Origin: Malacoraja senta
Lineage: Eukaryota
Reading direction: 5' to 3'
Length of the DNA stretch: 64,000 nt
Assembly (NCBI GenBank): GCA_038087875.1
Contig: CM075990.1
Span: forward strand, 13,828,001 to 13,892,000
Part shown: positions 25,961-26,518 of the stretch, one piece after another
Layout: every line of letters begins with the position of its first letter
How positions within the stretch are numbered: the stretch's first letter is position 1
Made by a program: the position numbers and the translations under genes
Notes under the pieces: generated by a model
Databases searched by the model: none
What the model was told of the DNA's origin: nothing
Seen by the model: the letters and a program-made list of their open reading frames with translations, nothing else

Positions 25961-26518
25961 CTATCTCTTGGTGTCCACATCCACCTCAATCTTCTCCTCG
26001 ACTGGACATTTGCGTTTGGGCTCCGTGCAGAACTTCTGCTGATAGCTGGAGTGCTGGTCCTGGTAGGTGGCGATGGCCAGGCACTCGGCAAACTGCTTGT
26101 CGCAGAGGCAGAGGTCGCTGGAGCAGGGCTGCAAGCCCTCCGGGCACTCAGCCCTGCCGACCTCACACACGGCGTAGCTGGGCTTCAGGTAGATGTTGGT
26201 GCCCTTGCCGCAGGAGGTGAGGAGCGCGGCCTCGTAGCAGCAGTCGTGGTGGAAGCAGCAGATGTCAAAGTCGTCCAGCGGCTCGCCGTCGCCTCCCTTG
26301 CCGCAGTAGCAGCCGTAGCCGTTGACATTGTATATGGAGAACTGATAGCGGTTGCGGTAGCACCACAGGACAAAGGCAATGTCCAGCACACTCCTCCGGC
26401 CCAAGTGGTGGCGGCGGAGGCTGCCGTCCTCCTCCGAGATGTTCTGTCCAGCGGGCAGGGGCATCAGCCGGCACAGCAGTAAGAGGTGGAAGACAACTGG
26501 CTGCCTCGCCCAATCCAT
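25961..26518 (-). CDS. Intronless secreted phospholipase A2, group X-like (185-aa prepro-enzyme)
   Basis: ATG in good Kozak context (gcaATGg). Hydrophobic signal peptide and propeptide ending in RR. Ca2+ loop YGCYCGKGG, catalytic [11 protein letters not shown] (His48/Asp49/Tyr52), LCD (Asp99) and 16 Cys in the mature region. No introns or stops. Confidence 0.92.

Follow-up and report, generated by a model that had tools for sequence, protein, structure and literature searches.

The question raised by this locus is how a complete secreted phospholipase A2 (sPLA2) gene in a single exon came to lie between CSGALNACT2 and a RasGEF gene in the skate Malacoraja senta, and what kind of enzyme it encodes. 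The stretch of DNA analyzed (the window) comprises 64,000 nucleotides of GenBank assembly GCA_038087875.1 (contig CM075990.1, positions 13,828,001 to 13,892,000), and positions are counted from its first letter. An earlier note, made from the sequence alone, had proposed a "group X-like" sPLA2 that was either a retained retrogene or lineage specific, with a possible digestive, skin-defense, or venom-type role. The reading favored here, with a probability of roughly 55%, is that the gene is an ancient, single-copy, intronless paralog of a second sPLA2 gene, most likely retroposed and under purifying selection since, and that it probably encodes a Ca2+-dependent secreted zymogen acting on neutral membranes. 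The window gene and its orthologs are called clade A, and the second gene is called clade B or paralog B.

Gene structure and encoded protein

An uninterrupted ORF was found on the minus strand, running from the ATG at 26518 to the TAG at 25961 and encoding 185 amino acids in one coding exon. PF00068 was the sole Pfam family matched (E = 2.5e-23; 83.1 bits against a cutoff of 32.1), and the product matched a RefSeq protein of Amblyraja radiata at 95% identity. Residues 1 to ~24 (26447 to 26518) are a predicted signal peptide with an inferred cleavage boundary; its hydrophobic stretch at residues 8 to 16 (KD mean, 2.86) was retained in all 10 orthologs scanned. The propeptide (26393 to 26446) lacks the P4 Arg of the furin consensus and ends in Arg-Arg, as it does in 18/18 clade A orthologs, with the mature chain starting directly afterwards at residue 43. 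The intact single exon, the signal peptide, and the RR-terminated propeptide had thus all been described correctly in the earlier note. Its count of 16 Cys applies to the mature chain of 143 residues, including Cys11 and the Cys of the C-terminal extension, but the precursor has 17, one of them in the signal peptide.

The mature sPLA2 core (26006 to 26392; 129 amino acids) contains the 16 Cys, allowing 8 potential disulfides, and has a net charge of -5 and a pI of ~5.0. The Ca2+-binding loop Tyr-Cys-Gly-Lys-Gly (26294 to 26308) was invariant among 19 clade A sequences except for exchange of Lys and Arg, and the His-Asp pair of CCFHHDCCY (26243 to 26248) and the later Asp of LCDKQ (26099 to 26101) were likewise invariant or nearly so, bearing out the loop and dyad that had been read as intact. 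In the standard sPLA2 numbering, these are the catalytic His48, the Ca2+-binding Asp49, and the catalytic Asp99. Together with the Ca2+ loop and Tyr52, they were all present, and they were invariant across an alignment of 61 sPLA2s (61/61 for His48, Asp49, and Asp99). The core is followed by an acidic tail of 14 residues (25964 to 26005) that is specific to clade A and conserved within it, with Glu133 and Thr141 invariant and Lys134, Ile135, and Pro130 each present in 17 to 18 of the 19 sequences.

The N terminus of the mature chain was aromatic and nearly invariant: the first 12 residues, including Phe7, Trp10, and Tyr12, were identical in 19/19 clade A sequences, and Tyr16, Phe18, and Tyr21 after them were also invariant. 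This gives clade A six aromatic residues in the first 25, against 3 in clade B and 2 to 3 in group X, a count that is not unique, since a Sparus group I-type protein has 7. Position 22 in clade A is Val, aliphatic instead of aromatic. The Tyr preceding Cys77 (standard numbering) is 3 residues away in 19/19 clade A sequences; the spacing is 4 in paralog B, group IB, and group X. An Asn-Tyr-Ser glycosylation sequon was observed at mature residues 72 to 74 in the sharks and chimaera of clade A and is absent from most batoids, including the window gene.

The mature domain, modeled with AlphaFold, reached a pLDDT of 84.8 and a pTM of 0.82; the full precursor modeled poorly (pLDDT, 62.9). The mature-domain model is that of a three-helix sPLA2 fold with a beta-wing. 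It superposed on group X structure 1le6 with a Z score of 15.5 and an rmsd of 2.1 over 121 residues, tied with groups I and II (Z of ~14.3 to 15.8 over the group X, I, and II enzymes; at Z of 15.5 to 15.8, the rmsd was 2.1 to 2.2 with 121 to 125 residues aligned).

Genomic setting and base composition

Relative to the last CSGALNACT2 coding exon (3294 to 3599, plus strand; 95 to 99% identical to chondrichthyan CSGALNACT2, with a CHGN domain), the ORF is 22 kb downstream. It is also 2.1 kb downstream of the stop codon of the RasGEF gene, on the same strand as that gene, whose last coding codons and stop occupy 28631 to 28651 (minus strand) and which gave RasGEF Pfam matches on two upstream exons. 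The gene therefore sits in the interval where it had been placed, between the last CSGALNACT2 exon and the last RasGEF coding exon; the neighbor is probably RASGEF1A (rather than 1B or 1C). No second PLA2 remnant was found within the 64-kb window. Upstream of the PLA2 gene, a high-copy LINE-type reverse transcriptase fragment was located at 26810 to 27047 (plus strand; RVT_1 E of 0.009, below the cutoff; repeat-level depth in 4/4 runs). It adjoins a gap of 200 N at 27048 to 27247, which lies between the PLA2 and RasGEF genes. The sequence at 26523 to 26624 (minus strand) is colinear with the N-terminal extension of a Leucoraja gene model (tblastn, 88% over 34 codons, in a shifted frame), and by this colinearity no intron lies immediately 5' of the ATG.

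The arrangement was recovered in independent data. Four of six listed sequencing runs were compared, and the ORF and both flanks were on single contigs in 3/4 of them, representing three organisms, and in the fourth the ORF and downstream flank were on two overlapping contigs. Among the 40 of 145 substitutions listed, none fell inside the ORF, and the indels listed for two other organisms (12 of 23) were all in the flanks.

The ORF had been called visibly richer in GC and CpG than its flanks. Its GC content (0.613 versus 0.448 for the window) and CpG o/e (0.65 versus 0.43) agree with this, but the stretch at 17.2 to 17.9 kb is far richer in CpG. All three of the 629 windows of 558 bp with a GC content of ≥0.60 overlapped the ORF, which was the richest among them because its GC3 is 0.865; GC3 was 0.69 for the CSGALNACT2 exon (100 codons) and 0.61 for the RasGEF gene (213 codons). 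The idea that this richness marks a recent insertion was rejected, its source being the third-position GC of an old gene.

Several other elements were observed in the window. AATAAA words occur at 28377 and 28317, and TATA-like words at ~27345, 26694, and 26656, all between the RasGEF stop and the PLA2 start; downstream of the PLA2 gene, AATAAA is absent for 5.6 kb and ATTAAA occurs from 24319. Transcriptional read-through from the RasGEF gene into the PLA2 gene is possible. A CpG-rich element at 17416 to 17907, with o/e up to 1.4, 80-nucleotide inverted repeats at its bounds (91% complementary), and no Pfam match, resembles a miniature DNA transposon. A minisatellite at 14280 to 14675 (41-bp unit, 9.7 copies, 96% matches) adjoins a 30-bp array at 14101 to 14252, and at 58411 to 58564 two copies of a common interspersed repeat face each other and form a 57-nucleotide inverted repeat (89%).

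Orthologs and chromosome linkage

Clade A orthologs were identified in 18 named chondrichthyan species, spanning skates, electric rays, stingrays, mobulids, a sawshark, several shark orders, and Callorhinchus, and were found solely in chondrichthyans. Their mature chains were 74 to 98% identical to that of the window gene, the core reaching 98% with the Amblyraja and Leucoraja proteins; identity was weaker in the prepro region, and all keep the 16 Cys. Among the 19 clade A sequences, 79/143 mature columns were invariant, including 29 of the first 37. Divergence of clade A within elasmobranchs was no slower than that of clade B (80% versus 80 to 83% identity).

A synteny comparison and a phylogeny had both been suggested in the earlier note, and both were run. 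The clade A gene was on the CSGALNACT2 chromosome in 16/16 testable species of the 18, as judged by matching contig sizes, a proxy that does not imply adjacency. In Leucoraja, Narcine, S. torazame, and Callorhinchus, the two genes have accession numbers that follow directly or almost directly on one another; in other species these were ~70 to 600 apart, a distance uninformative on adjacency. The orthologs reach as far as the chimaera and share their chromosome with CSGALNACT2, which excludes an insertion that is young or specific to one species, and on these comparisons the clade A gene is judged to predate the chimaera-elasmobranch split. A second clade A model in Carcharodon, on a 147-Mb contig, is identical at both ends to the main copy but looks frameshifted, with a garbled catalytic motif, and is either a broken copy of recent origin or an artifact of assembly.

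Paralog B and phylogenetic position

Clades A and B formed a top tier well clear of other sPLA2s in a profile search against 1.84 billion representatives and a named search that used a 17-sequence alignment. Clade B includes sequences from sharks, rays, sturgeons, paddlefish, coelacanth, caecilians, a newt, frogs, turtles, lizards, and a snake; four unnamed Logan proteins without a taxon also fell in the top tier. Of the 232 matches, 120 were listed, and among these the tier included no named teleost, bird, or mammal, an apparent loss in those groups. Paralog B was on a contig other than that of A or CSGALNACT2 in 8/8 chondrichthyans and 5/5 amphibians. The lineage-specific sPLA2 of the earlier note is thus supported, with clade A found only in chondrichthyans and the closest amphibian relative off the CSGALNACT2 chromosome in all five cases.

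The two clades differ consistently in charge and activation site. Core pI was 4.9 to 6.3 in 19/19 clade A sequences and 8.5 to 9.2 in the 17/17 clade B sequences tested. P4 Arg was found in 0/18 of clade A, whereas R-x-x-R was found by script in 31/34 of clade B and confirmed on reading in the remaining 3, which the script had mislocated. From sharks to snakes, clade B is conserved as a basic sPLA2 with 16 Cys, with identities of 59% between shark and coelacanth and 61% between shark and caecilian. Frog members carry long basic C-terminal tails, and ranid frogs have a second, divergent clade B gene on many contigs of 1.4 to 1.7 kb.

Trees were built on ~130 columns after removal of 43 OC90-like domains and of domains that were short or poor in Cys. 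Clades A and B were joined with support of 100/100 (LG, 67 rows), 97/95 (C20 mixture, 30 rows), and 99 SH-aLRT (179 domains), apart from group X, group II, and OC90. In the 67-row LG tree, group X formed its own clade (100/100) without the window gene. Forcing A with group X was rejected (p-AU, 0.006), while forcing A with shark B was not (p-AU, 0.235); A+B as sister of group X received 50/78. In the best trees, shark B grouped with coelacanth and tetrapods, and A fell outside shark B plus tetrapods. Branch lengths in the LG tree were 0.94 for the A stem, up to 0.17 for branches in the A crown, and 0.97 for the A+B stem.

These trees identify A as the true sister of paralog B, within a branch that apparently has no name, and not as PLA2G10. 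The group X Cys pattern is common to A, so sharing it does not make the window gene group X, and the 16-Cys pattern is probably ancestral. "Group X-like" therefore stands for the Cys pattern and dibasic propeptide and is misleading as a statement of ancestry.

Origin of the intronless gene

Of 27 other animal sPLA2 loci on metagenome contigs, 14 were interrupted by a GT after the second base of the codon that precedes the Cys-Cys-x-x-His-Asp motif; one of these is nearest group X and another nearest the Sparus group I-type protein. No break occurred at this position in the remaining 13, which may represent transcripts. The window gene also reads through at this, the one intron position examined, and its intronless state is therefore derived. 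None of the 27 loci was clade A or B by best match, save for one match of 19 residues, and when B intron location was sought by model comparison, the truncated B database models diverged at inconsistent points. Neither a poly(A) tail nor direct repeats on the flanks were observed around the ORF, and decay of both is expected at such an age.

Old retroposition fits because the intronless state is derived, the paralog lies elsewhere, B is off the CSGALNACT2 contig in amphibians, and the stem is long. A reverse-transcribed mRNA copy of B would most likely have been placed just downstream of the RasGEF gene before the chimaera/elasmobranch split, followed by fast divergence on the A stem and then by purifying selection. 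From the sequences compared, a retro-origin specific to A is considered a little better than even. The retained retrogene of the earlier note is accordingly plausible, with an intron position lost and the paralog on another chromosome, but without the tail or repeats that would mark the event.

The other origins differ in how much of this evidence they can absorb. A and B might both be intronless, or A might have lost its introns in place, the family having been founded once in the jawed-vertebrate stem, with a DNA-level A/B duplication before the shark/bony fish split and the sturgeon gene possibly an A ortholog. The long A+B stem and the position of A outside shark B plus tetrapods, seen in three trees, both suit this history, as do complete B ORFs on assembled contigs of 1.1 to 3.9 kb, which may be of RNA or DNA origin. 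A grouped with the sturgeon genes (76/91) in the LG tree, and the sturgeon gene is equidistant from A (43% identity) and shark B (44%). However, this join was flagged as long branches meeting and vanished under the mixture model. Moreover, the sturgeon gene is basic like B, has an R-x-x-R site, and is on a 27-Mb contig rather than the 40-Mb contig with the CSGALNACT2 copy seen (the genome is polyploid, and one copy was compared). We regard this history as unlikely, although it deserves real weight. A chondrichthyan PLA2G10 ortholog or direct PLA2G10 retrocopy would explain the 16-Cys pattern, the dibasic propeptide, and the best PDB sequence match of the protein, human group X (E = 3.6e-18), yet named PLA2G10 genes occur in at least four shark species on a third chromosome apart from those of A and B (in C. 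plagiosum, a contig of 60.5 Mb versus 30.2 Mb for A). A is also 33% identical to shark group X versus 39 to 44% to B, and with the topology test above, this makes descent from PLA2G10 highly improbable. A young processed pseudogene, which the earlier note had itself raised, would likewise be intronless, and GC richness and a neighboring LINE fragment might be expected of it; with the ORF intact and conserved in 18 species to the chimaera and the listed indels (12 of 23) confined to the flanks, its probability is negligible.

More tentatively, and at clearly less than even odds, clades A and B together may constitute an unrecognized vertebrate sPLA2 group, set apart to the same degree as groups I, II, and X, that was already present in the ancestor of jawed vertebrates and underwent independent losses in teleosts, birds, and mammals. 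The chondrichthyan retrogene would then be over 400 million years old and would have acquired reversed charge, a new activation site, an acidic tail, and a lineage-specific role, e.g., in reproductive-tract secretions or the inner-ear mineral matrix.

Predicted activity and role

On the favored reading of an old retroposed copy of B, the protein is probably secreted as a zymogen and activated by cleavage after Arg-Arg. Since P4 Arg is absent in A and R-x-x-R is present in B, the activating protease may differ. The mature enzyme would bind Ca2+ via the YCGKG loop and Asp49 and hydrolyze sn-2 esters through the His48/Asp99 dyad. Activity may be altered, as the equivalent of Tyr73 stands one residue out of register and position 22 carries an aliphatic side chain. 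Among sPLA2s, interfacial aromatics favor phosphatidylcholine and high positive charge favors bacterial membranes. The acidic core and aromatic N-terminal face of A would accordingly suit docking on neutral, phosphatidylcholine-rich surfaces, such as host cell membranes and lipoproteins, and not a bactericidal role of the group IIA type. By analogy, A is expected to act on such host membranes or lipoproteins with no bacterial killing.

A different possibility is that the protein is mainly a secreted ligand or an otoconin-like scaffold of a mineral matrix and not a lipase. The near-invariant N-terminal surface, the acidic core, the conserved acidic tail, and the shifted Tyr73 could all be read in this way. 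The distribution of non-calcitic otoconia loosely resembles a set of taxa lacking teleosts, birds, and mammals, and none of these three was among the named top-tier matches listed. The invariance of every catalytic and Ca2+ residue, the separate clade of OC90-type domains, and the basic charge of B argue against it, and it is considered improbable. Otoconins (OC90/OC22) have a degenerate catalytic site. Identity as an otoconin was rejected, the site being intact in A and OC90 falling in a separate clade; OC22 was not identified in the set. A venom or skin-defense toxin has still less in its favor, and we consider it very unlikely. The automatic names of these genes are taken from snake venom PLA2s, and PLA2 transcripts are described in venom tissue of two freshwater stingrays (PMC4768133). 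However, clade A is one slowly evolving copy, conserved across skates, rays, sharks, and chimaera, with neither restriction to nor expansion in a venomous lineage, and its bearers include non-venomous skates and sharks. The stingray venom-tissue PLA2 is modeled with 7 disulfides and a pI of 8.7 to 9.2 in the supplement of PMC4768133, against 16 Cys and a pI of 5.5 for stingray A, and PMC6315956 reports no PLA2-like contigs in the P. motoro venom apparatus. As to the digestive role suggested earlier, the pancreatic digestive PLA2 of a stingray has an N terminus other than that of A (PMC3050761).

Published record and significance

No published description of the A+B clade or its accessions was found in a search that most subscription papers fell outside. 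The closest evolutionary study, by Koludarov et al. (10.1101/583344), is concerned with the group II cluster together with a gene resembling otoconin-22; "shark" is absent from its main text, and its supplements may include A or B genes. The available text of PMC4314415 includes no sharks, and that of PMC4362833 merely lists "secretory phospholipase A2." A and B genes are on record as automatic RefSeq models under venom-derived names, such as "basic phospholipase A2 F17-like" and "minor isoenzyme-like" for B. It therefore appears that the sequences are on record and that their grouping is undescribed in the literature searched.

The finding adds at the level of the family and offers no new mechanism. 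Mammalian and snake venom enzymes are the basis of sPLA2 classification, and a strongly supported extra clade that spans sharks, sturgeons, coelacanth, amphibians, and reptiles changes the reconstructed ancestral repertoire. Venom-derived automatic names are misleading, and caution is advised before A or B genes are scored as toxins in transcriptomes of fish and amphibians. As a retrogene, the chondrichthyan copy would rank among the older ones that vertebrates have retained, and A and B together offer a natural comparison of acidic and basic enzymes on one scaffold.

Comparison with known sPLA2 groups

Group X (PLA2G10; 6g5j, 1le6) shares with A the 16 mature Cys with the Cys11 and C-terminal-extension pairs, the dibasic propeptide, the Ca2+ loop, the dyad, and the fold. 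It differs in forming a separate clade, in its identity to A of 33 to 36%, and in its chromosome in sharks; A is intronless, has 4 more residues between Cys61 and Cys77, and carries the acidic 14-residue tail. Pancreatic group IB resembles A in the Cys11 pair, propeptide, long Cys61-Cys77 loop, and fold, but lacks the C-terminal extension pair and belongs to a separate clade, and the N terminus of the stingray pancreatic enzyme differs (PMC3050761). The group II cluster and otoconin-22-like genes, as described in the main text of 10.1101/583344, share with A the C-terminal extension Cys and membership of the sPLA2 family; the cluster, at OTUD3-UBXN10, consists there of 4-exon genes with mostly 14 Cys. 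In the present trees, group II is a clade separate from A. The PLA2-like domains of otoconin-90 have a common fold ancestry with A, but OC90 is a two-domain protein in a separate clade, whereas A keeps its catalytic residues. Paralog B is alike in its Leu-Trp-Cys-Tyr-Arg N-terminal signature, the extended loop before the Ca2+ loop, and the 16 Cys. At 39 to 44% identity, it differs from A in being basic, in its R-x-x-R site, in having Tyr73 in register, in its chromosome, and in a range that extends to sturgeons, coelacanth, amphibians, and reptiles.
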